Positions 1-20,056 of a stretch of 64,000 bases of DNA are shown piece after piece. The notes beneath the pieces were generated by a model, which had not been told where the DNA came from, did not search any database, and worked only from the letters and a program-made list of their open reading frames with translations. This DNA is from Escherichia coli (GTDB taxonomy: Bacteria; Pseudomonadota; Gammaproteobacteria; Enterobacterales; Enterobacteriaceae): NCBI RefSeq assembly GCF_003790525.1, contig NZ_CP033635.1; one strand, given 5' to 3'. The first letter of the stretch is position 1. Every line of letters starts with the position of its first letter. The translations under genes were made by a program, and so were the position numbers.

Positions 1-1
1 A

Positions 2-373
2 GATGCGAATGGCGGCAAGTACGAAGGCTACCGTACCCATTACAAATGGGACAACGGACTTGCTCTGCGTGACTGGCGTTATGTTGTTCGCATTGCAAAC
101 ATCGATGTCAGCAATCTTTCAGAACCTTCCTCTGCCGCAAATATTGCGAAGTTGATGGTTAAAGCACTGCATCGCATTCCAAATCGTGGCATGGGTCGCC
201 CGGTGTTCTACATGAACCGCACTGTAGGCCAGGCTCTTGATCTGCAATCTCTGGAGAAAACATCTCTGGCGATCAGCGTAAAAGAGACAGAAGGCGAGTG
301 GTGGACTTCATTCCGTGGTGTACCAATCCGTGAAACTGATGCGCTTCTGGAAACAGAAGCCCGCGTGGTGTAA
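2..373 (+). CDS. Phage head protein, C-terminal part (probably major capsid protein); 5' end is upstream of the window
   Basis: Open frame runs from window position 2 with no stop until TAA at 371-373; position directly upstream of the tail tubular genes; identity as capsid is inference from gene order. Confidence 0.45.
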   Translation, partial: DANGGKYEGYRTHYKWDNGLALRDWRYVVRIANIDVSNLSEPSSAANIAKLMVKALHRIPNRGMGRPVFYMNRTVGQALDLQSLEKTSLAISVKETEGEWWTSFRGVPIRETDALLETEARVV

Positions 374-389
374 CGCCTGTTATTAACCT

Positions 390-409
390 GTGGGTCGTAA
401 CAGACCCAC
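390..409 (+). promoter_or_regulatory. Intercistronic stem-loop GTGGGTC-N6-GACCCAC after the head gene, no U-tract
   Basis: Perfect 7-bp inverted repeat read directly; lies between stop at 373 and the RBS (GGAG 414-417) of the next gene; possible RNA processing or stability element. Confidence 0.4.
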
Positions 410-424
410 TAATGGAGAAAGAAG

Positions 425-862
425 ATGATCACCGACAAACTGTTGATGTTCTCCGAAGCTCAGGCGGTTACGAATACCGCGGCTTCTACTGACGTAATCG
501 ATCTCGGTCCAATTGACGGAAAACGTCGTGATATCGGCGTGGGTTACCCGCTTGAGTTTTGGGCGCTGGTTAACACAGCCGCCGCGGCAAGCGGTGATGC
601 AACTGTAAACATCCAGTTGCAGACGAGTGAGAATAACAGCTCATGGACCACTATTTATGATAGTGGCGCACTGGCAAAGACCGCCCTGACAGCAGGTAAA
701 CGAGTTGTTTCTGCAAAGGTGCCTGCCGGTGTTCAGCGATATCTGCGTGTTAACTACTCCGTCGCAACTGGCCCACTAACGGCTGGCGAATTCACTGCTG
801 GTATCAGTCTTGATGTTGATGCCAATACGCCGTATCCGATCCGCTCAAAAGTAACTGGTTAA
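425..862 (+). CDS. Hypothetical phage virion protein (145 aa)
   Basis: ORF with ATG preceded by GGAG 8 nt upstream; sits in the structural operon. Confidence 0.6.
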   Translation: MITDKLLMFSEAQAVTNTAASTDVIDLGPIDGKRRDIGVGYPLEFWALVNTAAAASGDATVNIQLQTSENNSSWTTIYDSGALAKTALTAGKRVVSAKVPAGVQRYLRVNYSVATGPLTAGEFTAGISLDVDANTPYPIRSKVTG

Positions 863-872
863 GGTGATATCG

Positions 873-1208
873 ATGTCAGGTGAGAAACCAAGATACCGCG
901 TTCTGCGCCTCTCTCATATCCATAACACTCTGTGGCCGGAGGGGGCAGAAATCGAATACGAAGGTGAGCCCGGTAGCGCACTGGAACCTGTTAACGATGC
1001 AGCCAGACAGGCAAAAGCAAAAATTGCAGGAAAGGTGTCAATGGCAGCAACCAGCACCAAAATCATCAACGATGTGTCAGATGATGGTGAACTGGATAAG
1101 CTCCGTGAAGAGTACGAATTGCTCTTTAACGAGAAGCCACACCATAACGCCAAAGCCGAAACGCTCCGCGAGAAGATCGCAGATAAGCGTAAAGAACTGG
1201 GCGTGTAA
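873..1208 (+). CDS. Hypothetical phage protein (111 aa from ATG 873; ORF track begins at GTG 864)
   Basis: AAGGTGA RBS at 861-867 placed 5 nt before ATG 873. Confidence 0.55.
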   Translation: MSGEKPRYRVLRLSHIHNTLWPEGAEIEYEGEPGSALEPVNDAARQAKAKIAGKVSMAATSTKIINDVSDDGELDKLREEYELLFNEKPHHNAKAETLREKIADKRKELGV

Positions 1209-1226
1209 GCCTCGCGGATCAGACAA

Positions 1227-1246
1227 GGGGCTTCGGCCCCTTTATT
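1227..1246 (+). terminator. Intrinsic terminator inside the structural operon (GGGGC-UUCG-GCCCC followed by TTTATT)
   Basis: GC stem with UUCG tetraloop and T-rich tail read directly; placed after the head-proximal genes, analogous in position to the T7 T-phi terminator (established knowledge). Confidence 0.55.
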
Positions 1247-1258
1247 GCAGGAGTGTAT

Positions 1259-1582
1259 ATGGAACTCGTAAACCTCAAAACCGGCACTGACAGCTACCAG
1301 GATGAGAGCGGAGAAACCAGAACTCGCGATGAATACCCGTGGGGGCTGTGCATCACTCTTAATAACGACACATTGAATAAGCTGAAGGCGCAACCTCAGG
1401 GCGTCGGAACAGAAGTGATGATAACTGCAAAGGCTGTTATTCGAGGCCTGTCTGCCAGAGAAACTGACGATGGTGTTAATCGCAGCGCCGATCTGCAGAT
1501 CACTGATATGGCGATCGCTCCTGTTTCCGGGGATGTAGAAAAATCAGCGGCTGAAACCCTGTACGGCAATGGGGGTGAGTAA
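1259..1582 (+). CDS. Hypothetical phage virion protein (107 aa)
   Basis: GCAGGAG RBS 5 nt before ATG 1259; stop overlaps the next start (TAATG). Confidence 0.55.
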   Translation: MELVNLKTGTDSYQDESGETRTRDEYPWGLCITLNNDTLNKLKAQPQGVGTEVMITAKAVIRGLSARETDDGVNRSADLQITDMAIAPVSGDVEKSAAETLYGNGGE

Positions 1583-2187
1583 TGGCCTCTGTAGTAGAGA
1601 TCTGCAATCGTGCGCTGTCCAATATTGGCAATAGCCGCAGCATTAACAGCCTGACGGAAGCCAGCAAGGAAGCGGGGGAATGTTCGCTGCACTTTGAGGC
1701 CTGCCGTGATGCTGTGCTTTCTGATTTTGACTGGAACTTTGCTACCAAACGCGTGGCGCTTGCAGATACGAGCAATCCACCGCCTGACTGGGAATATGCG
1801 TACCAGTACCCGTCAGATTGTCTGCGCATTACTGAAATTATGCTTCCTGGTGTACGCAATCCAACAGCAGCAATGCGCGTTCAGTACGAAGTTGGTGCAG
1901 ACACCAACGGAACAGGAAAGTTGATCTACACAGACCAGCCTCAGGCATGGCTCAAGTATGTCTCTCTCGTTACAGATGTGAACATGTTTGATGCCATTTT
2001 TATGGAGGCGTTGGCCTGGCGTCTTGCGGCAGCTATTAACATGGCGCTGACTGGGAATGCAGACCTCGGTACGTTTGCCCTCAATATGTACAATCGCGTG
2101 ATTCTTAGTGCTGGCTCGCATAGCCAGAATGAATCACAGGAACCACAGCCACCGGTTGATGAGTTTACCATTGCGAGGTTGTCCTGA
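1582..2187 (+). CDS. Tail tubular protein A-like (T7 gp11-like)
   Basis: 201 aa; size, position and N-terminal sequence pattern resemble T7 gp11 from memory; stop/start overlap with neighbours. Confidence 0.6.
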   Translation: MASVVEICNRALSNIGNSRSINSLTEASKEAGECSLHFEACRDAVLSDFDWNFATKRVALADTSNPPPDWEYAYQYPSDCLRITEIMLPGVRNPTAAMRVQYEVGADTNGTGKLIYTDQPQAWLKYVSLVTDVNMFDAIFMEALAWRLAAAINMALTGNADLGTFALNMYNRVILSAGSHSQNESQEPQPPVDEFTIARLS

Positions 2188-4658
2188 TGGCTATCAGTTG
2201 GATCCAGCCCAGCTTTGCCGGTGGTGAGATTGGACCGTCGTTGTACGGGCGTATTGACATGGCGAAGTACCAGGTAGCATTGCGCAAGTGCGATAACTTT
2301 ATCGTGCGGCAGTATGGCGGCGTTGAGAATCGACCTGGTACGCGTTTTGTCGGTGCCGCCAAATACCCAAATCGGAAATGCCGCCTGATCCCGTTCCAAT
2401 TCTCGACGGTTCAGACTTATGCTCTGGAGTTCGGACACCAGTACATGCGCGTTATCAAAGATGGTGCGTTGGTGCTGAACAGCAGCAATGTTATTTATGA
2501 AATTGCCACGCCATATACTGAAGCCGATCTGTTCCGAATTAAATTCACGCAAAGCGCCGACGTGCTTACGCTGGTTCACCCGGCATACCCGCCGAAAGAG
2601 CTGCGCCGCTATGCGCATGACAACTGGCAACTGGTTGATGTGGTAACGAAGAACGGGCCATTTGAAGATATCAATATTGATGAGTCAGTGACGGTTTATG
2701 CCAGCGCCAGCACCGGGACAATTACGTTAACGGCAAGCGCCTCTATTTTTGGCGCGGAGCAGGTAGGCAAATTGTTCTATCTGGAACAGCCTGCAGTGGA
2801 TTCTGTGCCGGTATGGGAAACCAGTAAGAGTACGTCGATTGGCGATATTCGCCGTGCAGACAGTAACTACTATCGCGCCGTTACAGCAGGCAAAACAGGC
2901 ACTTTGCGCCCTTCGCATACAGAAGGCACATCATGGGATGGCTGGGGCGGATCCGGTGATGATGATACTGGCATTGAGTGGGAGTATCTGCACAGTGGTT
3001 TTGGCATTGCCCGTATAACTGCTGTAAATGGCACTACTGCAACTGCTGAGGTGATTTCCTATATCCCTTCGCAGGTCGTTGGCGAGGATAATGCCAGCTA
3101 TAAATGGGCTAAATATGCCTGGAACAGTGTTAATGGTTATCCTGGCACTGTTGTTTATTATCAACAACGTCTTTACTTCGCCGCATCGACTGCGTTCCCT
3201 CAGACCATCTGGGCCAGCCGTACCGGGGATTATAAGGATTTTGGCAAAAGCAATCCTACGCAGGATGACGACAGAATTATCTACACCTATGCCGGGCGTC
3301 AGGTTAATGAGATCCGTCACCTGATTGATGTTGGTTCTCTGGTGGCGCTGACTTCCGGAGGTGAGTACGTCATCACCGGCGACCAGAACAAAGTGTTAAC
3401 CCCATCATCATTTGCATTCAGCTCTCAGGGATCAAATGGCTCGAGTAATGTCCCACCAATTGCCGTAGCGAATATTGCTCTGTTCGTCCAGGAGAAAGGC
3501 AGTGTTGTCCGTGATCTGGCCTACTCATTCGATGTTGACGGCTATCAGGGGAACGACCTGACCATCCTTGCCAATCATCTTTTTCAGAAGCACAGCATTG
3601 TTGACTGGTGCTTCTCGATTGTCCCTTACTCCAGCGCCTTCTGCATCCGTGATGACGGTAAATTACTGGTGATGACCTATTTGCGTGATCAACAGGTTTT
3701 TGCATGGGCACCACAGTCCAGTACCGGAAAATATGAAAGCACATGCAGTATCAGCGAAGGCAATGAAGATGCGGTGTATTTCGTCGTTAACCGAACCGTT
3801 AACGGGCAAACAGTGAGATACATCGAGAGACTGTCCAGCCGTTTATTTACCAGCGATGAAGATGCTTTCTTTGTTGATTCTGGCCTTAGCTATGATGGAA
3901 GAAATACGTCTGACAGAACGATGACCATCACTGGTGGTTCTGGTGAATGGGATTACCGCGCGGAATATACAATCAGTGTTTCTGGTGGTGCGTACTTCAC
4001 CAGTAGTGATGTCGGTGCGCAACTACAGTTCCCTTATACCGGAACTGATCCTGATACTGGCGATGAAGTGTCAAAAGAATTACGTTGCGACATTATTTCT
4101 GTAACCAGCAATACCGCTGTAGTGGTTCGTGCTAACAGGAACGTCCCGCCATCCCTCAGGAATGTGGCCACCACGAACTGGCAGATGGCGCGCCGGACAT
4201 TTGGAGGCCTGTCTCATCTTGAAGGCCAGACCGTAAACATTCTTTCTGATGCGAATGTTGAGCCACAGAAAGTTGTTTCCGGAGGTGCCGTCACACTGGA
4301 ATCACCGGGGGCTGTAGTGCACATCGGCCTGCCAATAACTGCTGAATTCGAAACACTGGATATCAACATTAACGGACAGGAAACGCTGCTGGACAAAAAA
4401 CAGGTGATCCCCTCCGTTACTCTGGTTGTGAATGCCAGCCGCGGCATCTGGGCGACTACGCCTGGCGGTAAATGGTACGAACATCCACAGCGTGAATTCG
4501 AGTTCTACGATGATCCTGTTGATGATGCTACCGGAAAAGTAGAAGTGAAACTGGACAGTAACTGGGGCAAAAACGGACGTGTAAAAATCCGTCAGCTTGA
4601 CCCGTTGCCGCTGTCTGTTCTTGCCGTTATTCCTCGCCTTACTGTTGGGGGATTCTGA
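2187..4658 (+). CDS. Tail tubular protein B-like (T7 gp12-like, nozzle)
   Basis: 823 aa directly after the gp11-like gene; N-terminal GG...RPG pattern like gp12; TGATG overlap at both ends. Confidence 0.6.
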   Translation: MAISWIQPSFAGGEIGPSLYGRIDMAKYQVALRKCDNFIVRQYGGVENRPGTRFVGAAKYPNRKCRLIPFQFSTVQTYALEFGHQYMRVIKDGALVLNSSNVIYEIATPYTEADLFRIKFTQSADVLTLVHPAYPPKELRRYAHDNWQLVDVVTKNGPFEDINIDESVTVYASASTGTITLTASASIFGAEQVGKLFYLEQPAVDSVPVWETSKSTSIGDIRRADSNYYRAVTAGKTGTLRPSHTEGTSWDGWGGSGDDDTGIEWEYLHSGFGIARITAVNGTTATAEVISYIPSQVVGEDNASYKWAKYAWNSVNGYPGTVVYYQQRLYFAASTAFPQTIWASRTGDYKDFGKSNPTQDDDRIIYTYAGRQVNEIRHLIDVGSLVALTSGGEYVITGDQNKVLTPSSFAFSSQGSNGSSNVPPIAVANIALFVQEKGSVVRDLAYSFDVDGYQGNDLTILANHLFQKHSIVDWCFSIVPYSSAFCIRDDGKLLVMTYLRDQQVFAWAPQSSTGKYESTCSISEGNEDAVYFVVNRTVNGQTVRYIERLSSRLFTSDEDAFFVDSGLSYDGRNTSDRTMTITGGSGEWDYRAEYTISVSGGAYFTSSDVGAQLQFPYTGTDPDTGDEVSKELRCDIISVTSNTAVVVRANRNVPPSLRNVATTNWQMARRTFGGLSHLEGQTVNILSDANVEPQKVVSGGAVTLESPGAVVHIGLPITAEFETLDININGQETLLDKKQVIPSVTLVVNASRGIWATTPGGKWYEHPQREFEFYDDPVDDATGKVEVKLDSNWGKNGRVKIRQLDPLPLSVLAVIPRLTVGGF

Positions 4659-5122
4659 TGATCGATGTTCGAATTATTCCCGCTACCGAAGAGCATCTTC
4701 AGATGATTTTGCCGGATGTTCGTCAGGCTGATATTGACGAACTGTATGCGGTATCGCTGATGACTACCGAAGATGCGCTGCGCGTTGGTCTGCGCACTGC
4801 GACTATGGCCTGGTCAGGGTTCGCGAACGGAGAACTGGTAACCATGTTTGGTGTATCTCCGGCGTCAATGATCGGTGGCAATGGTACACCCTGGCTGGTC
4901 GGGACCAGCCGTATTGAAAAATATCAGAAGACATTTCTGCGCCACTGCCGCCCTGTATTGCAGCAGATGCTGGCAGTTTATCCGCGCCTGGAAAACTACG
5001 TCGACGAGCGAAACTATGTTGCCAAAGCATGGCTGCACTGGCTTGGATTCAGGCTTGAAGAGGCCGCGCCTTATGGTGCTCTTGGTCTTAATTTCCACAG
5101 ATTTCACATGGAGAGAAAATAA
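4658..5122 (+). CDS. Internal virion protein (gp13-like position)
   Basis: 154 aa; gene order only. Confidence 0.45.
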   Translation: MIDVRIIPATEEHLQMILPDVRQADIDELYAVSLMTTEDALRVGLRTATMAWSGFANGELVTMFGVSPASMIGGNGTPWLVGTSRIEKYQKTFLRHCRPVLQQMLAVYPRLENYVDERNYVAKAWLHWLGFRLEEAAPYGALGLNFHRFHMERK

Positions 5123-5667
5123 TGTGCGATCCGGTTATTGCTGGTGGCGCAATGCTCGCCATGAGTGGCATTCAGGCATACACCCAGTACCAACAGGGAA
5201 AGTATGCCTCGAAGGTTGCAGAAGCGAACGCAGATATAGCCACTGCTCAGGCAAATGATGCAATAAACATAGGTAACGCTGAAGCTGAGCAACGGCGCAG
5301 AGAGACCCGACAGCGGCTTGGTACACAGGCGGCGACAATGGGGGCTACCGGCGCTGATTTATCTACAGGTAACGCGCTGGATATATTTGGCGACACTGCT
5401 CAGTTTGGCGCTCTTGATGCGCTGACGACGGTGAATAACGCGCAACGCGAGGCTTACGGTTATCAGATGCAGGCTGCTAACTATAAAGCAGAAGCCAGTT
5501 CAGCCCGTAAACAGGGGAATGTGGGAGCAGCAACAACATTGCTCACTGCGCCTCTGAAGGCATACGGTGCGTACCAGATGTTTGGTGGGACGTGGAGTCC
5601 GTTTACTCAAAGCACTCCTGCGCCAATCGGGGCAGCAGCAGGAACCAGATTACCCGGAGGATTATAA
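5122..5667 (+). CDS. Internal virion protein (gp14-like)
   Basis: 181 aa, starts MC..., Ala/Gln-rich, same size class and position as T7 gp14. Confidence 0.5.
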   Translation: MCDPVIAGGAMLAMSGIQAYTQYQQGKYASKVAEANADIATAQANDAINIGNAEAEQRRRETRQRLGTQAATMGATGADLSTGNALDIFGDTAQFGALDALTTVNNAQREAYGYQMQAANYKAEASSARKQGNVGAATTLLTAPLKAYGAYQMFGGTWSPFTQSTPAPIGAAAGTRLPGGL

Positions 5668-8180
5668 TGCCAGTCGTACCAACAGTATCCGGACGTCAGG
5701 TTGAGAGCCGTGGAGTTCAGTCAGCAGGCTTGCAGACGTTTTCTCAGCCAGGTATTGGTGATGCTTTTGTTCTGGCAGGGGAAGAGGCAATTGATGTTTT
5801 TGGGCAGGCAAAACAGCGTGCCAATATTGCCTTGGCTCAGGAGGCATCTCTTAACCTCAGTCAGATAAGCAGTGATTTGCTGAATAATCCTGAAACAGGA
5901 TTGCTTAACCTGAAAGGGAAAAATGCTATTGGAAAAGGCCATGAGTATACGCAGCAGTTTGATGCTCAGGTCGAACAATTGGCTATGTCGCTGCCGGATG
6001 AACAGGCTCGTAATGCTTTCATGCAGCAGGCGCAGCAGCAGCGCATTCAGTTCACTACGCAGGCCGGGCGGCACGAGATAGGGCAAATAAATGCCTACGA
6101 AGAAGGCCAGTTTCAGGCGACGCTGCTGAACAATGGTAAAAATGCCGCAGCATTGTATGGCGACAACGCCGCATACGTATTGGCTAATAAGCAAACTTTC
6201 CAGCAAATTGAGGATTACGGCATTGCGCATGGCTGGAGCGACGAGCAAATCCAGGCCAAGAAAATCGAGTTTAAAGAGAAGGTTGCTGATGCCGCATTGT
6301 CCCAGTGGTCGGCAAACAATGCGACCGCATTCATCCAAAGTAATGGCGAGTTAAGTGATACTGCTGCTGGAGCTCGCCGTGCTGTAGCAGATAGTGACTC
6401 TTCCGAGCGTGCCCGTGGCATACGCAACAATAACCCAGGAAATCTCGAATACAGCAAAACTAATCCGTGGGTAGGCCAGACCGGTGATGATGGTCGATTT
6501 GCTAAATTCGAAACACCTGAACACGGGATTCGTGCATTAGGGCGGAACCTGATGTCGTATCAGAGGCAGGGTATTGATACCGTCAGCGAGATAATTAATC
6601 GCTGGGCACCGCCTACTGATAAAAATGACACTATGTCGTATATCAAAGCAGTGTGCGAACAACTTGGCGTTTCTGCTGATGAGCCTCTCGATGCATCTAA
6701 TCCTGATACCCTGAAGGCGCTTTGTGCAGCCATTATCCATCATGAGAACGGTAGCCAGCCATACAGTGATCAGCAGTTAACTGCTGGTGTCAGTGCAGCA
6801 CTTGGTTTATCAACAATTCCAACCAACATCAAACGCTATACCGGTAATGCAGCATTCGATGCGGCATCTCCTGAGGCGCAGGCAAGTTTTATGCGACAGG
6901 CGGATCAACTGCGTCGGCAGCAGCAGGCTGAATATAAAACGATGATTGACAGCCAGGTTCGCGATGCGACAGCTGCGTATATGCGTGGCGTTGAATTTCC
7001 TAACCCACCTGGTGAGGCTGATTTTATTGCAGCTTATGGAGTCAGAGAAGGAAACCTGCGATATACCGAGTTCAGAAATGCGCAAATCGCCGGACAGTAT
7101 ATAGGCTCTTTCCGCAACATGCCGACAAGCAGCATTACATCATATGTTGAGCAATTACGCCCGGATACTGGTGAGACAGGGGAGGGTTATGCGGCACGAG
7201 CCGCTCTTTATGACAACGTTGTGTCGGCTGCAAGTCAGGTGATAAAGCAGCGACAGGCTGATCCTGTACAGTTCTCTCTTGCCGCCGGACAGGCAAAGCC
7301 TATCGACATGAGCAATAAGGATAACTTTGGACAGAGCGTTGCCTTGCGTGCCGCTCAGGTCAGTGACCTTGCTAAGTCATATGGCACTCCACTGACGTTC
7401 TTTTCCAAAGACGAGGCCAATCAGATCGGTGTTTTCTTTCGTGATGCGCCCGTTTCCCAACAGGCAGCATATCTCGATACCATCAGGCAGAGCACTGGTG
7501 GTGGGCAGGTGTATATGTCAGCACTACAGCAGATCAGTGCCAACGCTCCATCTGCTGCCGTTGCCGGGATACTGATGGATAAGCCAGGTGGTATTTTGGC
7601 AGAAAAAAACTGGTTTAATCCGGATGTTTCCGTGTCTCCTGAAACCGCTGCGCAGACAATTCTTGCTGGCGCGGCGGCTCGTAAAGGTACTGATGACGCG
7701 AAAGGTATTCCGATGCCTAAAGATGCTGATCTTCGCCTTGAGTTTTCTGACATGGTGAAGGATGCATTTGCTGGTGATGCTCAGGGGGCATCAATGGCAT
7801 ACGAGATCGCAAAGGACTATTACGCTGGTGTGATGGCGAAAAAAGGCGTGGTATCAGGCGAAATTGACAATGATATCTGGAAACAGGCTGTTAACGTAGC
7901 TACAGGTGGCGTGCATGACTATAACGGAATGGGGAATGTTCTTTTGCCGTGGGGAATGTCTGCAGAGCAATTCGATAAGCAGGTTAATCAGGCTTGGAAT
8001 GAACAAGTTGTTGGCACAGGGATAAAAACACCGCCTGGTCAGTATGGTTTGCAAAGTTACGGCGATAGTCAGTACCTGGTGAAACTTGGTACTGGTTATC
8101 TGCTAAAAGATGATGGTTCTCCCGTTGTTCTTGATCTGACACAGAAGCGTCAGAGATTCTCCGGAGATATTCCGAAATGA
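5667..8180 (+). CDS. Internal virion / ejection protein (gp15-like position), 837 aa
   Basis: Start moved from ORF-track 5592 to ATG 5667, which overlaps the upstream stop (TAATG) and has GGAGG 7 nt upstream; contains a conserved-looking NNPGNL...W...RWAP motif block. Confidence 0.55.
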   Translation: MPVVPTVSGRQVESRGVQSAGLQTFSQPGIGDAFVLAGEEAIDVFGQAKQRANIALAQEASLNLSQISSDLLNNPETGLLNLKGKNAIGKGHEYTQQFDAQVEQLAMSLPDEQARNAFMQQAQQQRIQFTTQAGRHEIGQINAYEEGQFQATLLNNGKNAAALYGDNAAYVLANKQTFQQIEDYGIAHGWSDEQIQAKKIEFKEKVADAALSQWSANNATAFIQSNGELSDTAAGARRAVADSDSSERARGIRNNNPGNLEYSKTNPWVGQTGDDGRFAKFETPEHGIRALGRNLMSYQRQGIDTVSEIINRWAPPTDKNDTMSYIKAVCEQLGVSADEPLDASNPDTLKALCAAIIHHENGSQPYSDQQLTAGVSAALGLSTIPTNIKRYTGNAAFDAASPEAQASFMRQADQLRRQQQAEYKTMIDSQVRDATAAYMRGVEFPNPPGEADFIAAYGVREGNLRYTEFRNAQIAGQYIGSFRNMPTSSITSYVEQLRPDTGETGEGYAARAALYDNVVSAASQVIKQRQADPVQFSLAAGQAKPIDMSNKDNFGQSVALRAAQVSDLAKSYGTPLTFFSKDEANQIGVFFRDAPVSQQAAYLDTIRQSTGGGQVYMSALQQISANAPSAAVAGILMDKPGGILAEKNWFNPDVSVSPETAAQTILAGAAARKGTDDAKGIPMPKDADLRLEFSDMVKDAFAGDAQGASMAYEIAKDYYAGVMAKKGVVSGEIDNDIWKQAVNVATGGVHDYNGMGNVLLPWGMSAEQFDKQVNQAWNEQVVGTGIKTPPGQYGLQSYGDSQYLVKLGTGYLLKDDGSPVVLDLTQKRQRFSGDIPK

Positions 8181-9979: not shown

Positions 9980-9984
9980 ATTAA

Positions 9985-12459: not shown

Positions 12460-12468
12460 GGAACAACA

Positions 12469-12882: not shown

Positions 12883-12897
12883 GTCGTGACATGTCAC

Positions 12898-12922
12898 AGG
12901 CCGCTTTCGCGGCCTTGTTTTT
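12898..12922 (+). terminator. Intrinsic terminator of the structural operon / lipoprotein gene
   Basis: AGGCCGC-TTTC-GCGGCCT hairpin followed by TGTTTTT. Confidence 0.6.
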
Positions 12923-13082
12923 AACGAATGCCACCGCCACCCGGGCGGGAATCCGCAGAACGCCCACCGCAGCGGGAGCCGTCAGCAGCAGTGTCGCTGT
13001 CGTGCTGACAACGACCGGCAAAGGCCTGAGTTGAAGCTACCAGAGACAACAAAACGAACAGTGCAGCAAATGCTTTTTTCAT
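12921..13082 (-). CDS. Candidate small secreted peptide (53 aa, Sec signal MKKAFAALFVLLSLVASTQAFA, two Cys)
   Basis: Internal ATG of the 77-aa ORF; convincing signal peptide but weak RBS; possible TTGACG / TATAGA promoter just upstream. Confidence 0.3.
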   Translation of the reverse strand: MKKAFAALFVLLSLVASTQAFAGRCQHDSDTAADGSRCGGRSADSRPGGGGIR

Positions 13083-13154
13083 TGTGAAATTTCCATCTAT
13101 AAGCCACCTCAATGTGGCGTCAATGAGTGTAGCACTGACTTTTGTTTCGCCCAC

Positions 13155-13176
13155 AAAAAAGCCCGCAGCGCGGGCT
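13155..13176 (-). terminator. Intrinsic terminator of the cargo operon
   Basis: AGCCCGC-GCU-GCGGGCU hairpin followed by six U on the - strand; overlaps the stop codon at 13175. Confidence 0.6.
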
Positions 13177-13615
13177 ATTCTTCTTCATCATTAAAAAGCG
13201 GATTGTTGTTTCCATCTGATGAAAGGAAAGGTATGTGTTCTCTTGAAAATCCAACAATGACAATTTCATTATCATTTTTTGCATAATGAATGCATTCATT
13301 AGAATGCCTTCCGCCAGGGTTGAAATTTAAGTTAATGGTATAATTCTTAAATGTGTTTGGATACCATGTTGGCCCACAATGATAATGCCAATAATTCTCT
13401 TGCTCATAATTGTCTGAGCCGGGAATTTTATCATGGTTATCATCAACCCACGAGGGCTTGTTTTTTCCAACAAGCGCCCTTCCATTGGCAACATCCTCTA
13501 AAAAACTTTGTATGATTTTTATTTCATCATCAGTAAGGAAAGGTCCGTCTACAGCGAAAGGGGTGTTGCTTTCCCCATGTAGAAAACTATTAGATATTCT
13601 AATGTTAAACTTCAA
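13175..13615 (-). CDS. Hypothetical cargo protein, about 146 aa, low GC, Asn-rich, no recognised domain
   Basis: Probable TTG start at 13615 with AGGAG RBS 6 nt upstream, 20 nt after the stop of the 55-aa ORF; ORF track shows a longer frame from 13756 that overlaps the upstream gene. Confidence 0.5.
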   Translation of the reverse strand: MKFNIRISNSFLHGESNTPFAVDGPFLTDDEIKIIQSFLEDVANGRALVGKNKPSWVDDNHDKIPGSDNYEQENYWHYHCGPTWYPNTFKNYTINLNFNPGGRHSNECIHYAKNDNEIVIVGFSREHIPFLSSDGNNNPLFNDEEE

Positions 13616-13635
13616 GGAAAACTCCTGATGTGCTT

Positions 13636-13803
13636 CTATTTGGAGCGAAATGCCGCCTTGAAGTCGCTGAAAGATGTTCCTGTCTGGTAAACCATATCCT
13701 TGTCGCGCTCTTTGCTTGCGCGGCCAAGCATAACTTTTCCAATGACATCCCAGCATTGCTTGGCTTGTTCATTGTGCTGAGTACGATTTTTCAACGCTGT
13801 CAT
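13636..13803 (-). CDS. Small protein (55 aa), first gene of the cargo operon; possible regulator or antitoxin-like partner
   Basis: ATG with AGGAGG RBS 6 nt upstream, placed immediately downstream of promoter P_A; translated by hand. Confidence 0.5.
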   Translation of the reverse strand: MTALKNRTQHNEQAKQCWDVIGKVMLGRASKERDKDMVYQTGTSFSDFKAAFRSK

Positions 13804-13815
13804 ATCGCGCCTCCT

Positions 13816-13858
13816 TTACCTTTAAGGTAATAGTACGCTATTCACCCACAGTCTGCAA
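13816..13858 (-). promoter_or_regulatory. Promoter P_A (-35 TTGCAG at 13853-13858, 17-bp spacer, -10 TACTAT at 13830-13835) with operator copy A (TTACC-TTTAA-GGTAA, 13816..13830)
   Basis: Hexamers and the 15-bp palindrome read directly; the operator abuts the -10 and the RBS. Confidence 0.55.
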
Positions 13859-13867
13859 TCTGTACAG

Positions 13868-13894
13868 AATTATTTAAAGGCACATCCCTGTGCC
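13868..13894 (-). terminator. Terminator-like hairpin after the antirepressor-like gene (GGCACA-GGGA-TGTGCC then TTTAAATAATT)
   Basis: Hairpin read directly; T-rich but interrupted tail. Confidence 0.45.
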
Positions 13895-13902
13895 GCCGCC
13901 CG

Positions 13903-14589
13903 TCAGAAGAACCCAGCCTTGTCGTTGATGTACTCCGCGTGGGTCTGGATATCACGCAGGCATTTGCTCACACCAACAATGTAGCAGAACATGGTGGTCA
14001 GCTCCGCCGCCGCGCCCGATACGTCGTGCCCGTCTTCCTGTAACTGGTTCAGCAGATTCATCAGCAGTGAGTTCTCCGTCAGGCCGAGAACACCAGACGG
14101 AGAATGAATCAGGCTGCGGTAGCCGGGCTTCAGTGGGGCACTGTAGGTTTTGTTCTCTATCTTCATTGCCTGCATCACTGCTGATGCTGTGGCGTTGGCT
14201 ACCTGGTCGGCAACTATCTTTATGCGTTCTTCCTGCGGGAGCGAGTTTTTAATGTAACTTCCGGTGCGGCGGATCTGAGGAAGAACCTCACCTGTAACCC
14301 ATTTACGAAAGCGGTAGGGGATAGTGCCTGGTGTCACTGCGTCGCGGCAGCGGAGGATCAGTGTGTAGAGGCCTGACTCGTTGATAATATTGGTTTCACC
14401 TTGACGGCCTAAGTTAAATTTAGCCCTTTCATCATCATCAAGAGATTTTATTGACATAGTGGGGTTTGTCAGTTGAAGAGCTTTAATAACGTCTTTGGCA
14501 ACAAACCAAGGATTTCCATCAATAACAATGGCTCGAATGGTGGCTTCTGATTCAAAATGAAAAACAGATGGGGTTACGTTAGCAGTCAT
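13903..14589 (-). CDS. Antirepressor-like protein with N-terminal BRO-N / AntA-type domain, 228 aa
   Basis: Motifs FHFE...IR..IDG.PWFVAKDV and ESGLY.LI read in the translation (BRO-N family, from memory); start set at ATG 14589 with AAGGTGA RBS rather than ORF-track 14742, which has no RBS and a Gly/Cys-rich non-protein-like extension. Confidence 0.8.
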   Translation of the reverse strand: MTANVTPSVFHFESEATIRAIVIDGNPWFVAKDVIKALQLTNPTMSIKSLDDDERAKFNLGRQGETNIINESGLYTLILRCRDAVTPGTIPYRFRKWVTGEVLPQIRRTGSYIKNSLPQEERIKIVADQVANATASAVMQAMKIENKTYSAPLKPGYRSLIHSPSGVLGLTENSLLMNLLNQLQEDGHDVSGAAAELTTMFCYIVGVSKCLRDIQTHAEYINDKAGFF

Positions 14590-14742
14590 AGTGATCACCT
14601 TTGTAGTTAGGTTAATCACCACTACCGACGCCAATCGGTTGGTGGTGAACTGTGCAGGGTTGGCGTAACCGGCTACAAAGGACCCGGCGCACCTTTCGGT
14701 GCCCCCACACAGCCCACCATAGAATAGGTGCGCTTTACACAT

Positions 14743-14761
14743 AAAAAAACCGCTTATGCGG
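14743..14761 (-). terminator. Short intrinsic terminator or attenuator in the leader of the antirepressor-like gene (CCGC-AUAA-GCGG followed by seven U)
   Basis: Read on the - strand; stem is only 4-5 bp, so call is tentative. Confidence 0.4.
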
Positions 14762-14855
14762 CATATGTGCCTCTGTAGTAACCCGGGACGCCAATCCCGG
14801 CACTGGATTTTGCCAGTGCCCGATTACTATGGCACAAGAGGAGTGCGATGTAAAT

Positions 14856-14898
14856 TTACCGAAAAGGTAATAATAAACACTCTACTTGGTAATTGCAA
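14856..14898 (-). promoter_or_regulatory. Promoter P_B (-35 TTGCAA at 14893-14898, 17-bp spacer, -10 TATTAT at 14870-14875) with operator copy B (TTACC-GAAAA-GGTAA, 14856..14870)
   Basis: Near-consensus sigma70 hexamers with exact 17-bp spacing; palindrome overlaps the -10 and start site. Confidence 0.6.
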
Positions 14899-14901
14899 AC
14901 C

Positions 14902-15159
14902 TTATCTGGTTTGTTTTCGTAATTGTTCGGCACAATAGTCGAGATGTGTTTGCAGATCCCGCATAGACATCTGTGAGCTGGTGACGTAGTTAATCAGTGC
15001 AGTCAGTTCGGCAAGTGGGCCATCGACATTAAATCCATCCTTATCGAGATCCCGGAGTAATTTCATCAAGTGCGATCCCTCCACCAGTGACCTGACGCCT
15101 CCCGGCGTGTGAATCCTTTCGGTAAATCCGTCTTCCAGTGGATAGTGATACTGCTGCAT
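14902..15159 (-). CDS. Small protein (85 aa) paralogous to the C-terminal domain of the adjacent antirepressor-like protein; candidate SOS-controlled small antirepressor
   Basis: By-eye alignment with the last ~70 aa of the 228-aa protein shows about 40 percent identity; ATG 15159 with GGAG RBS; LexA box directly upstream. Confidence 0.6.
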   Translation of the reverse strand: MQQYHYPLEDGFTERIHTPGGVRSLVEGSHLMKLLRDLDKDGFNVDGPLAELTALINYVTSSQMSMRDLQTHLDYCAEQLRKQTR

Positions 15160-15178
15160 CTTATCTTCTCCATGCAAT

Positions 15179-15235: not shown

Positions 15236-15250
15236 TTACCCGAAAGGTAA
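15236..15250. promoter_or_regulatory. Operator copy C (TTACC-CGAAA-GGTAA) in the divergent region between the 85-aa gene and the tailspike gene, next to a TTGCAA hexamer (15229-15234)
   Basis: Third copy of the 15-bp palindrome; promoter partner hexamers not clearly assignable. Confidence 0.45.
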
Positions 15251-15354
15251 TATCTATTCGTATTTACAGTCTTTCTATCCATATGTGGTTTTTCAGGTAA
15301 TAGAATAACCAGATATGCGGCGCAACGGGTGCTGCGACTATCTGGAGATTTAAC

Positions 15355-17544
15355 ATGACGGTCTCAACCGAAGTTGACCACAACGAATACACCGGTAACG
15401 GCGTTACGACATCATTTCCGTATACCTTCCGTATTTTCAAAAAAACCGACCTGGTTGTTCAGGTGTCTGACCTGAACGGGAACGTAACAGAATTGGTTCT
15501 GGATACCGGTTATAAGGTAACTGGAGCGGGCACTTATAGTGGCGGTGAAGTGGTTCTCCAGTCGCCGCTTGCTGCTGGCTGGCGAATTACGATAGAGCGT
15601 GTGCTTGATGTGGTGCAGGAGACTGATCTTCGCAATCAGGGAAAATTTTTCCCCGAAGTTCATGAAGATGCATTTGACTACCTGACGATGCTGATCCAGC
15701 GATGTTTTGGGTGGTTCAGACGTGCATTGATGAAACCATCTTTGCTTGCAAAATATTACGATGCAAAGCAAAACAAAATTTCTAACCTTGCAGATCCATC
15801 ATTTGAGCAGGACGCTGTAAATAATCGCTCAATGCGTAATTATGTCGATGCTGCAATCGCCGGGGTTGTTGGTGGTTTTGGTTGGTTTATACCGTCAGGA
15901 AGCGGGGCAAGACAACGAACATTTCAAAGCAAAATGAGGGATATAATTTCTCCTTGTGATTACGAAGATAATATTTTTATGATTAAGGAGTTGATATCCA
16001 AAGGCAAAAATGCCGCTGTTTTTAACTCATATTATACTTTTGTTATTACTGTTGGCGAATGGGGTGATTTCCCTACACTCAAAGATGCAATCATTGCAGC
16101 CCAGTCAATGAGACCTATGTGGGATGGTGGTAATGCTTTCTGCGAAATAAGAATTAAGACCGGGCATATTATCAACTATCAAATTGAATTCAGTTCAGGT
16201 GTTGATTTGTCTTGGATTAAAATAACATCAGAAGACTCAGTGGTTTTCTCTGACACTCGTTTGTTTACTAAAATCGTTAGAACGTATTACGAATACAAGT
16301 ATTTATTTTACATTTGCGATGCAGCAAAAAGTCCTGTATTTGCTATTCAGATCGAAGAAAATAGAGATGATAGCGATGTTTGTGCATTTATTGTAACTCA
16401 AAAAGCTGAACTTAATTTCTATCCGTATTCAGGTGCTCGAAAGTTCTACGTTGGAATTCATGGTAGTTTTGGTGCAAAAATTAGTGCATATCATACCGGA
16501 TGTGCTCCTGATGAGGAAAGTGTTGCTGCATATATGCCAGAAGGGTATTACGTATGTGATTTTTCTTATAGCAGATACTCTTCCCTGCAACTGGTAAATA
16601 ATGTCAAGGCATCAATGCCTGTAAGCAAGTTTGAACGGTGCACAGAGAGTACGGTTGCGTCAGTTAATTGTATTTATAATGTTAAAGCAGATTTTCAGGG
16701 GTCAAGTGCAAGCTATTGTTATATAGGATGGAATGTAAGAGATGGTTCAAATGTTAATATACGCGACCATAAAACTATACATTGCTCATATCGTGGATTA
16801 ACCTGCATTCATACAGCATATGTTGATGCAAGACGACATGACGTTGAAGAAAGTGATGCAGAAACAAGTGGTAAAGTCCTTGAACCAAATATTGAAAAAG
16901 GTTTTTATGGATGTGCACTTGGTGTGCGTATTGATGGTGCGGGTTGCGTTGATGTTGCTGGTAATGATATGCGCAATTGTGGAACAGCCGTTAATGCAGA
17001 CACTGGTGCTGTTATTTCAGGAAAGGCTGTAGATATCTCAGGGGCTGAGCTGGGATTTGATTGCCATGCAGGAGCATCTGTTAATTTTCCAAGGCTATGG
17101 GGTACAGATATAAAAAAATTAATGCACCTCCAAGATGGTGTAAGGTTTAACTCTAATATTTGTCATGTATTTGGTGCAAATCCCACAAAAGATATTAGAT
17201 GGATTGATGTAGAGAGATCTGAAGCTTCTTTTATGAATGCAACGCTGGATGCAGATTCAGGATTTATTGCCGACTGTGGTAGTAGGATAACCATTGAAGG
17301 AAGTAAAGTTAAAAACCAAACAATAAGAAGTTTTTTTGGATCATATGTGGCTATAAATAATACTGTTGCTGACAGAACTTATTCAGATATAGCCGATGTT
17401 CCGCAGTTGACTATTAGTGGAGGATCTTTTATTTCTGCTACAGGATATTCTAATTCTGACTCCAGCCCTCTGAGGTTGAGCACAACACGAAATACACTTG
17501 GCGTTGGAGGAGCCATATTTTCAACCAATGGGGAAGTTTCATGA
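15355..17544 (+). CDS. Tailspike / tail fiber protein, 729 aa: conserved N-terminal virion-attachment domain plus divergent C-terminal receptor-binding part
   Basis: N-terminus carries the YTGNGVTT.F.Y.F pattern typical of podovirus tail fiber or tailspike adapters (from memory); C-terminal two thirds are AT-rich and Cys-rich; GGAG RBS 7 nt upstream. Confidence 0.7.
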   Translation: MTVSTEVDHNEYTGNGVTTSFPYTFRIFKKTDLVVQVSDLNGNVTELVLDTGYKVTGAGTYSGGEVVLQSPLAAGWRITIERVLDVVQETDLRNQGKFFPEVHEDAFDYLTMLIQRCFGWFRRALMKPSLLAKYYDAKQNKISNLADPSFEQDAVNNRSMRNYVDAAIAGVVGGFGWFIPSGSGARQRTFQSKMRDIISPCDYEDNIFMIKELISKGKNAAVFNSYYTFVITVGEWGDFPTLKDAIIAAQSMRPMWDGGNAFCEIRIKTGHIINYQIEFSSGVDLSWIKITSEDSVVFSDTRLFTKIVRTYYEYKYLFYICDAAKSPVFAIQIEENRDDSDVCAFIVTQKAELNFYPYSGARKFYVGIHGSFGAKISAYHTGCAPDEESVAAYMPEGYYVCDFSYSRYSSLQLVNNVKASMPVSKFERCTESTVASVNCIYNVKADFQGSSASYCYIGWNVRDGSNVNIRDHKTIHCSYRGLTCIHTAYVDARRHDVEESDAETSGKVLEPNIEKGFYGCALGVRIDGAGCVDVAGNDMRNCGTAVNADTGAVISGKAVDISGAELGFDCHAGASVNFPRLWGTDIKKLMHLQDGVRFNSNICHVFGANPTKDIRWIDVERSEASFMNATLDADSGFIADCGSRITIEGSKVKNQTIRSFFGSYVAINNTVADRTYSDIADVPQLTISGGSFISATGYSNSDSSPLRLSTTRNTLGVGGAIFSTNGEVS

Positions 17545-17837
17545 TTAAGAGCATTGATGTCACTCCATTTCTTCACTCGCTTTGCGCTTTTGCGGCTCAG
17601 GTACTGGTTGGTATTTTTACCGGAAACTGGGCTTACGGTGCGATAGCCGGTTGTACGTTCTTCATTGCGCGTGAACACACCCAGGCAGAATATCGCTGGA
17701 TAGAAAAGTTTGGGAAAGGGAAACGTATCAACATGCCGTGGTGGGGAGGTTTTGATCCACGCGTGTGGGATGTGGGAAGTCTGTTGGATTTTGCTGTTCC
17801 TGTTGTTTTTTGTTTTTGTGTTTATTTCTCTATTTGA
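17541..17837 (+). CDS. Small membrane protein (98 aa, two hydrophobic helices)
   Basis: ATGA overlap with the tailspike stop; hydrophobic stretches in translation. Confidence 0.5.
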   Translation: MIKSIDVTPFLHSLCAFAAQVLVGIFTGNWAYGAIAGCTFFIAREHTQAEYRWIEKFGKGKRINMPWWGGFDPRVWDVGSLLDFAVPVVFCFCVYFSI

Positions 17838-18039
17838 CTGCTACCGCGCCATTAAATGGTGCGGTATTCAACCTGCTCTTCACTGTTTGTTTCTTCAGAG
17901 TCATGTAAAAGGTGAGCTTTATTCTCGGCATGAAAAACAGGGAATTGACGATGTTAAAGTAACAAAAAACCATAAATGGTTTATTATGCGTAATGCTTTA
18001 CTGTTCAGGAGGTTGTTATGCATATAAACGGTGGAAAAC

Positions 18040-18444
18040 ATGTCAGCTCAACTAACCAGTGAAACTTTAAATCAGTGGCTTAGCATGAGTTCTCTGGCGG
18101 CGGTGATAGCAGGAGTTCCTCCTGAGGTTGCTTTGGGTGCTTTGGCTGGAGCGGTAATTTTTGTTACCTCTGCAGTAGAGTACCCCATCCGTCGCCGGGT
18201 GCTCCTGTCGATGCTCAGCTTTCTTTGCGGCCTTCTCTTTTACAAACCAGCAGCATCAATTCTTATCGGCATAGCCAGCCTGATCCCTACCATCACGCAG
18301 GACTCTTTTGAAAAAGGGATTGTTTTCTCTGCAGGCGCATTCGTGTCAGCAATTGTCGCTGTGCGTATTGGTATATGGCTCTATCACCGTTCCGATAATC
18401 CACGCGAGTTAATTCCGGGGAGAAAAGACGATGGTAACGCATGA
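18040..18444 (+). CDS. Membrane protein, holin or antiholin candidate (in-frame alternative start GTG 18031)
   Basis: Several predicted transmembrane stretches; two in-frame starts three codons apart (GTG-GAA-AAC-ATG). Confidence 0.45.
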   Translation: MSAQLTSETLNQWLSMSSLAAVIAGVPPEVALGALAGAVIFVTSAVEYPIRRRVLLSMLSFLCGLLFYKPAASILIGIASLIPTITQDSFEKGIVFSAGAFVSAIVAVRIGIWLYHRSDNPRELIPGRKDDGNA

Positions 18445-18739
18445 GTTTTTTTTGCTTATCACCAATGCAGTTATTTGCACTGGCATAGCAATTCGCGTTG
18501 TCACATTCCGGCGTAACGGCTCTCAACACCGAAGGTGGGGAGGATGGCTTGCTTATTTCCTGATTGTTGCTGCGGCCAGTATTCCTGTTCGTGTCGCCTA
18601 TGCAATCTGGTTACGTACGCCAATGGCTGTGGATTTATCTGAGGTCATTATCAACGCTGTCATGCTAGCTGCGGTTATTAAAACGCGCGGTAACGTCGTT
18701 CAAATTTTCAAAGTATCGAGGTCTAAACATGGAGATTAA
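18431..18739 (+). CDS. Holin candidate (102 aa, 2-3 transmembrane helices) immediately upstream of the endolysin
   Basis: Position and hydrophobicity pattern; overlaps neighbours at both ends. Confidence 0.5.
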
Positions 18740-19358
18740 ACAATTCCAGCGAGCTGCTGGTATCAGCGAGGCACTGGCCGCACGCTGGTTCTCGCATATA
18801 ACTTCTGCGATGAAAGAGTTTGGTATCAGCAAACCAGAAGATCAGGCTATGTTTATTGCTCAGGTCGGGCATGAGTCTGGAGGCTTCACCCGGTTGCAGG
18901 AGAATTTCAACTACAGCGTCAGCGGACTGGCTAACTTTGTTCGGGCTGGGCGTCTCACTCAGGGACAGGCCAACGCATTGGGGCGACGTGCAGGCGAACC
19001 ACCATTGCCACTTGAGCGCCAGAGAGCGATTGCCAATCTGGTGTACAGCAAACGCATGGGGAACAATGCCCCTGGTGATGGCTGGAACTACCGTGGGCGC
19101 GGGCTTATCCAGGTTACCGGTTTGAATAACTATCGTGACTGTGGAAACGGTCTTAAGGTTGACCTGCTGGAGAGTCCTGAACTGCTGGCGCAGGACGAAT
19201 ACGCGGCTCGTAGCGCGGCGTGGTTCTTTGCCAGCAAAGGATGCATGAAGTATACCGGCGATATTGCACGTGTAACTCTGATTATCAATGGTGGCCGGAA
19301 CGGCATCGACGACCGGCGCGCGCGATACATCAATGCCAGTAAGGTGCTGGCGGTATGA
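18729..19358 (+). CDS. Endolysin, glycoside hydrolase family 19 (chitinase-like) type
   Basis: Motifs [18 protein letters not shown] and NYRD read in the translation, recalled as GH19-type phage lysozyme signatures; position between holin and Rz. Confidence 0.8.
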
Positions 19359-19837
19359 TCTGGGCATTCGTAAAAGCATACTGGAAACAGTTGGTTATCA
19401 TGGCGATGCTTGCTGTTCTGGTCATATCAGGAGTTGTAGCCTGGAATGCACACGGTAGTCGTCAGTACGACGCCGGGTATGCGCAGGCGGAAGAAGACCG
19501 CAAAGACGAAGAAGACAAAGTTCGTCAGTACTACGAACAGGAGAAAGTGACCAATGAACGTGAAGCGCAGCAAAGAATCGACCAGGCGCGCAATGATGCT
19601 CTTGATGCTGCCGCTCGCGCTGGCAGGTTGCAGCAACAACTCTTTGCCATCCGTGAGCAGCTCAGGCAGTATAACGCCATTGTCGGCGCTGGGACGTCAG
19701 CCGCAGACACCGGAGTTTTGCTTGCCGACGTGCTCAGCAAATCTCTCGAGAGAAACAGACAACTGGCAGAGTATGCTGACCGGGCAGCCGAAGCCGGAAG
19801 AGTCTGCGAAAAACAGTACGACACCCTGACCAGATAG
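19355..19837 (+). CDS. Rz-like i-spanin (N-terminal transmembrane helix, coiled-coil periplasmic domain)
   Basis: ATGA overlap with endolysin stop; typical Rz architecture. Confidence 0.7.
19554..19829 (+). CDS. Rz1-like o-spanin lipoprotein, fully embedded in the Rz gene in the +1 frame
   Basis: Signal peptide ending in lipobox LAGC, Pro-rich mature part, embedded arrangement as in lambda Rz/Rz1 (established knowledge). Confidence 0.65.
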   Translation: MNVKRSKESTRRAMMLLMLPLALAGCSNNSLPSVSSSGSITPLSALGRQPQTPEFCLPTCSANLSRETDNWQSMLTGQPKPEESAKNSTTP

Positions 19838-19992
19838 CATGGTATTTTTCATGGCACTGATTTCCGGTGACGGTATATAAAACGGTACGGGAAAAGTTGA
19901 GCTTTGGAAAAATGTTATCACTCAATTGGTTATGGTGTCCGTGAATAATTGAGTGGGAATGATTTTGATCCCTGCACTATGAATGAACAAAA

Positions 19993-20018: not shown

Positions 20019-20056
20019 ATACTCACGAATCATAGGCTTGAAGTTACTGACATCGC

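Follow-up and report, generated by a model that had tools for sequence, protein, structure and literature searches.

Positions 1-19964 of a 64,000-nucleotide stretch of Escherichia coli DNA (contig NZ_CP033635.1, assembly GCF_003790525.1; the whole stretch is referred to as the window) very probably represent the late-gene (right) half of an integrated temperate podovirus of the phiV10/epsilon15 type, genus Uetakevirus. The window starts inside the major capsid gene and holds only about half of the prophage. In megablast comparisons with phage records, the segment was covered by HEMP4 over 97% of its length at 97.2% identity, by phiv142-3 over 87% at 96.7% and by phiV10 over 80% at 96.0%, with Enterobacter phage Tyrion as a more distant match (74% coverage, 80.6% identity). 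Every phage match ended at 19964. For the half present in the window, the identity to members of the genus lay above the ~70% genome-wide nucleotide identity that serves as the ICTV genus criterion.

Gene content and gene order pointed in the same direction. The listing of open reading frames (ORFs) and the composition revealed a densely packed plus-strand gene train (1-12882), a minus-strand block (12921-15177) and a second plus-strand stretch (15355-19837); ordinary chromosomal genes followed from 20057 on. Counterparts of phiV10 gp10-gp20, eleven structural proteins, were all present in unchanged order with 96.5-100% amino-acid identity, and the collinear set of capsid, cement, staple, adaptor, nozzle and five internal proteins was that of the Uetakevirus virion module. 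Gene order, lysis cassette, phage attachment (attP) core and integration at the 3' end of guaA were as in the Uetakevirus phages phiV10, HEMP4, phiv142-3 and vB_EcoP_ZX5, and phiV10 also carries the antirepressor module IsrK-C4-ant found here. Compared to phiV10, the window phage lacks the O-acetyltransferase gene oac, has a tailspike receptor-binding domain of the HEMP4 type and another Ant C-terminus, and carries an extra accessory cassette at 12469-13892. With the Salmonella phage epsilon15 it has in common the genus, the virion gene numbering gp7-gp17, the attP core and the lysis genes, whereas the DNA identity is only ~76-82%; epsilon15 has neither ant nor C4 nor IsrK and possesses O-antigen conversion genes that are missing from the window. 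A P4-type tyrosine integrase and a CI-type repressor occur in the close relatives MS 198-1 and phiV10.

Among the complete genomes and phages in the collections none was identical across the prophage, the best genome reaching 97.8%. At least 80% of the segment 1-19964 was found in 140 of the 5,426 complete E. coli genomes over which the host spread was counted. A preliminary description, made from the letters of the window alone, had proposed a mosaic temperate podovirus. The temperate podovirus is borne out by the 97.2% identity to HEMP4 and the exact right-hand attachment site (attR), but the element, a standard and previously described Uetakevirus of the phiV10/epsilon15 group in the canonical guaA site, is no new or unusual mosaic.

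The attachment site at guaA

The right-hand end of the prophage is made up of the following features.

19948-19964, plus strand: attR core ATTGAGTGGGAATGATT, made up of the final 15 nt of guaA with the stop codon (TGA), plus TT
19965-20596: host flank, with the native guaA terminator hairpin at ~19990-20019, then yfgI at 20057-20596 on the minus strand

The core was defined by comparing the window, the empty site of strain SMS-3-5 and the left-hand attachment site (attL) of the lysogen MS 198-1. The 17-bp sequence ATTGAGTGGGAATGATT was found as a single copy each in the window, in phiV10 (position 26720) and in epsilon15 (26732), in both phages within the interval between Rz and int, and it was present again at attL of MS 198-1 and at the empty bacterial site (attB) of SMS-3-5. 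The 17-bp core and integration at the guaA 3' end have been published for phiV10, epsilon15 and ZX5 (PMC9782041); our statement on the epsilon15 attP combines that report with our own search for the core. On the left side of the core, the window contains phage sequence and SMS-3-5 the guaA coding sequence, whereas on the right side the two are identical. Homology to phage-free chromosomes began exactly at 19948, and these unoccupied chromosomes, in which guaA abuts yfgI, matched the window only from there rightward.

The insertion at the yfgI-guaA junction that had been suggested from the letters was thus confirmed by the exact core, by a flank 100% identical to that of empty-site strains and by the order guaA-int-...-Rz-yfgI in relatives, and the adjacency of the two genes stated for K-12 was found in K-12-type genomes. 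The accompanying wording, that the phage is inserted where K-12 has guaA, is correct for the site and incorrect insofar as it implies a replacement of the gene. Because the core duplicates the last 15 nt of guaA, the gene is regenerated at attL and not disrupted; judged from the sequence of the core, guaA is intact on the attL side, outside the window.

A 601-bp junction running from Rz across attR into yfgI was common to 362 complete E. coli genomes. The 44 kb of backbone from 19948 to 64000 were 100% identical to SMS-3-5, KFu014, SBF22 and other strains, and in these the guaA attB is empty. The fact that strains with an identical backbone are unoccupied suggests a recent acquisition and argues for a recent, clean integration rather than an assembly artefact. 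In MS 198-1 the complete order was xseA, guaB, guaA, int, early genes, late genes, Rz, an IS200C copy and yfgI. On this model, a phage P4-type tyrosine integrase, encoded outside the window, would recombine attP with the 17-bp attB at the guaA 3' end. The core would re-create the last five guaA codons and the stop codon; guaA would be located at attL ~20 kb to the left of the window, and the side of the integration seen in the window would be attR, followed by yfgI. Integration targeted to a tRNA gene was considered and rejected, since there is no tRNA in the window and the target is the guaA 3' end.

Some features of the relatives at and beyond this site are recorded here as observations in their own right. 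At attL of MS 198-1 (locus positions 9975-10015), the phage arm beside the core has a terminator hairpin with the stem CCCTCTG...CAGAGGG, the same stem as in the native guaA terminator that is left at attR (19990-20019 in the window). With this phage-arm hairpin next to the core, the guaBA transcript would still be terminated directly after guaA in the lysogen. The IS200C copy of MS 198-1 (34865-35456 of the locus), with the STnc490 RNA, is located between attR and yfgI; the window is without it. In phiV10, positions 2856-2929 on the minus strand gave an Rfam tRNA match of 73.3 bits where RefSeq lists only the hypothetical coding sequence PhiV10p04, and the MS 198-1 prophage has this tRNA-Arg among its annotated genes; the corresponding position is outside the window.

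Virion genes and their relation to T7

The first plus-strand gene train encodes the capsid, tail and internal virion proteins.

2-373, plus strand: C-terminal 123 codons of the major capsid protein; translation free of frameshifts and identical to the C-terminus of the phiV10 major capsid protein, annotated in MS 198-1
425-862, plus strand: Bbp16-family capsid cement protein (PGAP name), 145 aa; 97.9% identical to phiV10p11
873-1208, plus strand: small virion-module protein (epsilon15 gp9-like), 111 aa; 99% to phiV10p12, phrog_590
1259-1582, plus strand: capsid staple protein (epsilon15 gp10-like; PGAP name); 98% to phiV10p13
1582-2187, plus strand: tail adaptor with T7 gp11 fold (Foldseek), 201 aa; 99.5% to phiV10p14
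2187-4658, plus strand: gp12-like tail nozzle, 823 aa; 99.4% to phiV10p15, PDB 8ck1_A
4658-5122, plus strand: internal virion protein (epsilon15 gp13-like), 154 aa; 98% to phiV10p16, phrog_308 'internal virion protein'
5122-5667, plus strand: T7 gp14-family core protein, 181 aa; Pfam PF24072, PGAP 'virion core protein, T7 gp14 family'
5667-8180, plus strand: large internal/ejection protein, 837 aa; lysozyme-like domain at aa 249-382
8177-9979, plus strand: internal virion protein (epsilon15 gp16-like), 600 aa; 97.8% to phiV10p19, phrog_1145
9985-12459, plus strand: internal virion/structural protein (epsilon15 gp17-like), 824 aa; 96.5% to phiV10p20, phrog_684 'virion structural protein'

Stop and start codons overlap as TAATG or TGATG at 1582, 2187, 4658, 5122 and 5667 and as ATGA at 8177-8180. 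The preliminary description had recognized gp11-like and gp12-like genes and four internal-protein genes joined in this manner; the genes and the overlaps were found, and the number of internal ORFs had to be raised from four to five (4658-12459).

The AlphaFold2 model of the adaptor, with a predicted local distance difference test (pLDDT) value of 84, was matched by Foldseek over its full length to the Carin-1 connector (E=1e-16), to the LME-1 adaptor and to T7 gp11 (7box_M; E=3e-6, template modelling (TM) score 0.57-0.59). In the PDB sequence search, the nozzle matched the Carin-1 'Tail Nozzle' 8ck1_A (E=1e-217) and LME-1 orf18 (E=7e-16). Among solved structures, those of Carin-1, a Cobetia marina phage (PDB 8ck1), and LME-1, a Legionella phage (9efk), come closest to the adaptor, the nozzle and the tailspike anchor, although these phages infect other hosts and their adaptors are only 32% and 18% identical to that of the window. 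The product of 5122-5667 matched Pfam PF24072 T7_gp14 with E=1.2e-6 over model positions 1-172 of 187. For the 837-aa protein the PDB matches (the N-terminus of Gp29, 9vvp_L, E=6e-38; endolysin 7q47, E=3e-17) were confined to the lysozyme-like domain; the record of epsilon15 gp15 notes a lytic transglycosylase by HHpred. Adaptor, nozzle and 837-aa protein were all without a Pfam match, and neither Pfam nor PDB gave a match for 8177-9979 and 9985-12459. The PDB sequence search was likewise empty for 5122-5667 and yielded insignificant hits for 4658-5122, and no NCBIfam family scored above its cut-off for any of 20 window proteins.

The T7-like virion gene order noted earlier can be attributed to three links: the fold match of the adaptor, the homology of the nozzle to the solved Carin-1 and LME-1 nozzles and the Pfam family T7_gp14. 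It is not accompanied by pairwise sequence similarity, as BLASTP and hhalign comparisons with T7 gp11, gp12 and gp14 detected none for the nozzle, the gp14-like protein or the profile of the adaptor. As in T7, adaptor and nozzle are followed by a small internal protein, a protein of the gp14 family and large ejection proteins. Where T7 has gp15 and gp16, however, the window has three large proteins (837, 600 and 824 aa), and the muralytic, lysozyme-like domain resides in the first of them, whereas in T7 it is found in the last, gp16. The window phage further differs from T7 in being temperate and in the cement and staple genes between the capsid gene and the adaptor. Of the marks of the Autographiviridae, a single-subunit RNA polymerase and a strictly lytic life cycle, neither was found: the element is integrated, and in the complete genomes of phiV10 and epsilon15 genes for an integrase and a repressor are present while one for a phage RNA polymerase is absent. 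The likeness to T7 is real but remote, ancient and already documented, and the element has the tail and ejectosome plan of T7 without being a member of the T7 family.

The virion genes follow the widespread order adaptor - nozzle - internal core that was first described in T7. By homology, the internal core ('ejectosome') proteins would be carried inside the head and released from it to span the periplasm; a cell-wall-cutting domain is part of one of these proteins. In the guaA-integrated relative MS20659 (4156-10867 of the locus), two large internal proteins of 915 aa and 1129 aa (the latter 'DUF919') stand in place of three, which suggests that the ejectosome genes are exchanged as modules within the phage group. 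MS20659 also has an endosialidase tailspike, and pdeF is a pseudogene there while it is intact in the window (21984-24227).

Several points weigh against this overall reading. The window covers no more than half of the element, and integrase, repressor, attL and replication genes are taken from relatives. No genome or phage is identical (best 97-98%), the accessory region 12469-13892 and the tailspike receptor-binding domain deviate from phiV10, homologues are the source of both the C4 mechanism and the roles given to the ejection proteins, and epsilon15 itself is without the ant/C4 module. A defective or truncated, non-inducible remnant at guaA would also present itself with a window that begins inside the capsid gene and leaves the left half outside; the early regions of relatives do carry some pseudogenes (ead/Ea22 and others in MS 198-1), and many gut prophages are inactive. 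We nevertheless consider a remnant improbable, as all genes in the visible half are full length and collinear with HEMP4 and phiV10, both of them infectious phages, the C-terminal part of the capsid protein does not differ from that of phiV10, attR is intact, and the empty sites in strains of identical backbone suggest a recent acquisition. It is hardly credible that a lytic-phage contaminant or an assembly chimera was joined to the chromosome. Nothing beyond the abrupt change of content at 19948 speaks for it, the published 17-bp core coincides exactly with the breakpoint, the junction recurs in the 362 complete genomes, and relatives show both attL and attR.

The parallel between T7 and the adaptor-nozzle-gp13/14/15/16-like order, together with the fold link to T7 gp11 and the Pfam link to gp14, could also be read as a novel chimera, formed when a lambdoid backbone of regulatory and lysis genes recently received a virion module of the T7 family (Autographiviridae). 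This is very unlikely in view of the lack of pairwise similarity to T7 gp11, gp12 and gp14, with an identity of 12-13% in the fold alignment. The module is moreover 96-99% identical in phiV10, conserved in epsilon15 and was described in 2007-2009; the same architecture is found in many podoviruses, among them Carin-1, LME-1, SU10, KHP30 and crAss001, and phiV10 is without a phage RNA polymerase. A recent chimeric origin was rejected, the resemblance being ancient and already on record: the RefSeq entry of epsilon15 cites T7 tail tubular protein A for gp11. We retain the reading of the segment as half of an established Uetakevirus prophage.

The antirepressor module

The minus-strand block contains the antirepressor gene and two RNA elements in front of it.

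13903-14589, minus strand: BRO-N antirepressor Ant, 228 aa; phrog_130/245 'anti-repressor Ant', 76% to phiV10p23 over the first 174 aa
14606-14598, minus strand: C4 target a2 CUACAAAGG, overlapping the ant Shine-Dalgarno sequence AAGGUGA (14601-14595)
14634-14628, minus strand: C4 target b2 UUGGCGU, from an exact complementarity search
14638-14724, minus strand: C4 antisense RNA, 48 nt upstream of the ant ATG; Rfam RF01695, 79.5 bits versus a gathering threshold of 45
14681-14673 and 14666-14660, minus strand: C4 loop a' CCUUUGUAG and b' ACGCCAA, respectively
14743-14832, minus strand: IsrK small RNA / c4-a1b1 element with its own terminator (Rfam)
14794-14788, minus strand: site b1 UUGGCGU of the IsrK element, which also holds site a1 CUACAGAGG
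14899-14870 and 14854-14826, minus strand: promoter-like sites (promoter scan)
14902-15159, minus strand: epsilon15 gp19-like protein, 85 aa; phrog_450, 99% to phiV10p24

The antirepressor circuit of the preliminary description was recovered as the BRO-N protein Ant, and the C4 and IsrK RNAs were found upstream of its gene. The isrK family RF01394 matched 14743-14819 with 74.7 bits (gathering threshold 50), and the overlapping match to c4-a1b1 (RF03163) reached 44.1 bits, just under its gathering threshold of 46.7. In the 5' to 3' direction of the minus strand, the order was promoter-like sites, IsrK and its terminator, C4, b2, a2 over the Shine-Dalgarno sequence and the ant ATG at 14589. The loop of the second C4 hairpin, CCUUUGUAG, is a perfect 9-nt complement of a2, and the single-stranded ACGCCAA after the C4 loop complements both b1 and b2 over 7 nt. 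IsrK and C4 are not annotated in the RefSeq record of phiV10.

An alignment of four prophages (window, phiV10, MS 198-1 and MS20659) revealed co-variation of these sites. In the window, a', a1 and a2 each contain a 1-nt insertion, with CCUUUGUAG/CUACAGAGG/CUACAAAGG versus CCUUUUAG/CUAAAAGG/CUAAAAGG in the other three prophages, so that its C4 'a' specificity is CUACAAAGG as opposed to CUAAAAGG in phiV10. For b', b1 and b2, GUGCAAA/UUUGCAC was found in MS 198-1 and MS20659 and CGCCAA/UUGGCG in the window and phiV10. The a and b sites co-vary in triplicate, giving three combinations of specificities among the four prophages. Co-variation of this kind is what one expects from a functional antisense switch whose specificities can be exchanged, and the classic description of c4 in P1 and P7 matches it.

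In the immI region of P1/P7 (c4-icd-ant) and in the isrK-orf45(STnc1160)-anrP locus of Gifsy-1, a single transcript likewise comprises an a1b1/IsrK element, a C4-type RNA and an antirepressor. Antisense loops complement upstream and downstream sites there as they do in the window, and the specificity variants resemble the heteroimmunity of P1 and P7. In the window, by comparison, a2 is located directly over the ant Shine-Dalgarno sequence and no separate icd-like gene is evident. The Gifsy-1 locus has been dissected experimentally and is architecturally the same as the window module (PMC4825925). From the P1 and Gifsy-1 precedents we infer that a single transcript would carry IsrK with the decoy sites b1 and a1, the C4 antisense RNA and ant. 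Pairing of the C4 loop with b2 and with a2, at the ribosome-binding site of ant, would block Ant synthesis in the lysogen, and the decoy sites of IsrK could relieve this block. C4 pairing may in this way set an additional immunity specificity.

In phiV10 and MS 198-1 a 24-codon upstream ORF begins immediately behind the IsrK terminator and is closed by a TAG within the C4 a' loop. This stop is removed in the window (14589-14742, minus strand) by the 1-nt insertion in a', resulting in an in-frame fusion to ant and an ORF of 279 aa; no Shine-Dalgarno sequence was visible. The upstream ORF may be compared with the orf45 of Gifsy-1, which is translated. The 85-aa gp19-like protein, whose gene sits just upstream of the IsrK promoter, is a free-standing paralogue of Ant's C-terminal domain, phrog_450 matching both (Ant aa 196-277) and the two sequences being recognizably alignable.

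Tailspike, lysis and accessory genes

The second plus-strand stretch encodes the tailspike and the lysis proteins.

15355-17544, plus strand: tailspike, 729 aa; conserved Uetakevirus anchor (aa 1-~200) and swapped receptor-binding domain
17541-17837, plus strand: hydrophobic membrane protein, 98 aa; phrog_1443, no phiV10 match
18040-18444 and 18431-18739, plus strand: two holin-type membrane proteins; phrog_198 and phrog_217 'holin', 94% and 81% to phiV10p27 and p28
18729-19358, plus strand: GH19 endolysin, 209 aa; SPN1S endolysin PDB 4ok7 (E=1.7e-116), GH19 chitinases
19355-19837, plus strand: Rz i-spanin; phrog_312 and phrog_11621 'Rz-like spanin' (Rz/Rz1), 89% to phiV10p30
19554-19829, plus strand: embedded Rz1 o-spanin with lipobox LALAGC; 94.5% to phiV10p30a

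The N-terminal 166 aa of the tailspike were 67% identical to the phiV10 tailspike, the remainder being unmatched, and the first ~200 residues were the only part shared with phiV10 and Carin-1. The receptor-binding domain, with a GC content of 0.38, was 99.8% identical to that of HEMP4, and its identity to JEP4, HZ41 and 92CQ, which are unrelated phages, was 91%. Pfam gave nothing significant for the tailspike. Exchange of the receptor-binding domain is a typical module exchange (PMC10408124), and the modular tailspike would set the host specificity. The 98-aa membrane protein sits where phiV10 has oac and epsilon15 its O-antigen conversion genes; unlike in these two phages, no O-antigen-modifying gene follows the tailspike in the window.

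The lysis genes formed a complete holin - endolysin - spanin cassette (in PHROG two holins, the endolysin and two Rz-like spanins). The GH19 and Rz/Rz1 genes that had been read from the letters were thereby recovered, the former through the match to 4ok7 and the latter as Rz with its embedded Rz1. Lysis would proceed through the two holin-type proteins, the GH19 endolysin and the Rz/Rz1 spanin.

Between the internal virion genes and ant the window carries the accessory cassette.

12469-12882, plus strand: accessory lipoprotein, 137 aa, lipobox LISAC; phrog_8691, no phiV10 match
12898-12915: late-operon terminator after the lipoprotein gene (terminator scan)
12921-13082, minus strand: signal-peptide moron protein, 53 aa; phrog_14503 'membrane associated protein', 53-aa coding sequence annotated in MS 198-1
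13175-13615, minus strand: accessory protein, 146 aa, predicted RelE/ParE-superfamily toxin fold
13636-13803, minus strand: 55-aa ORF directly upstream of the toxin-fold gene; phrog_8607

Between its late terminator and ant, phiV10 is without this cassette of lipoprotein, 53-aa, 55-aa and 146-aa proteins; the 137-aa lipoprotein stands in place of the 46-aa phiV10p21. The lipoprotein and the 53-aa signal-peptide protein are candidate surface or exclusion morons. The 146-aa protein was modelled with a pLDDT of 91.7 and has the invariant motifs GKNKPSW and YWHYHCG. It had no match in Pfam, NCBIfam, PADLOC or annotated PHROGs, and PADLOC detected no known defence system among the accessory ORFs. 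Lambdoid prophages of Klebsiella have homologues in their nin regions, where a small ORF precedes them: the 55-aa ORF showed weak similarity (E=0.007) to the ORF upstream of a Klebsiella homologue. It is possibly the partner or antitoxin of the 146-aa protein, and with the predicted fold a toxin-antitoxin-like moron is a reasonable interpretation of the two genes. Rather less probably, they might constitute an undescribed phage toxin-antitoxin or abortive-infection family that is co-transcribed with ant and hence gated by the C4 switch.

In summary, the prophage is one more copy of a well-described phage type that a few percent of the complete E. coli genomes contain; the prophage boundary is fixed at 19964, and guaA is undisrupted. 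A HEMP4-type receptor-binding domain, with no O-antigen-modifying gene beside it, was identified as the host-range determinant. The toxin-fold accessory gene offers studies of phage defence and counter-defence a minor starting point, and the co-varying C4 and IsrK sites illustrate the diversification of a second, RNA-based immunity specificity in these phages.

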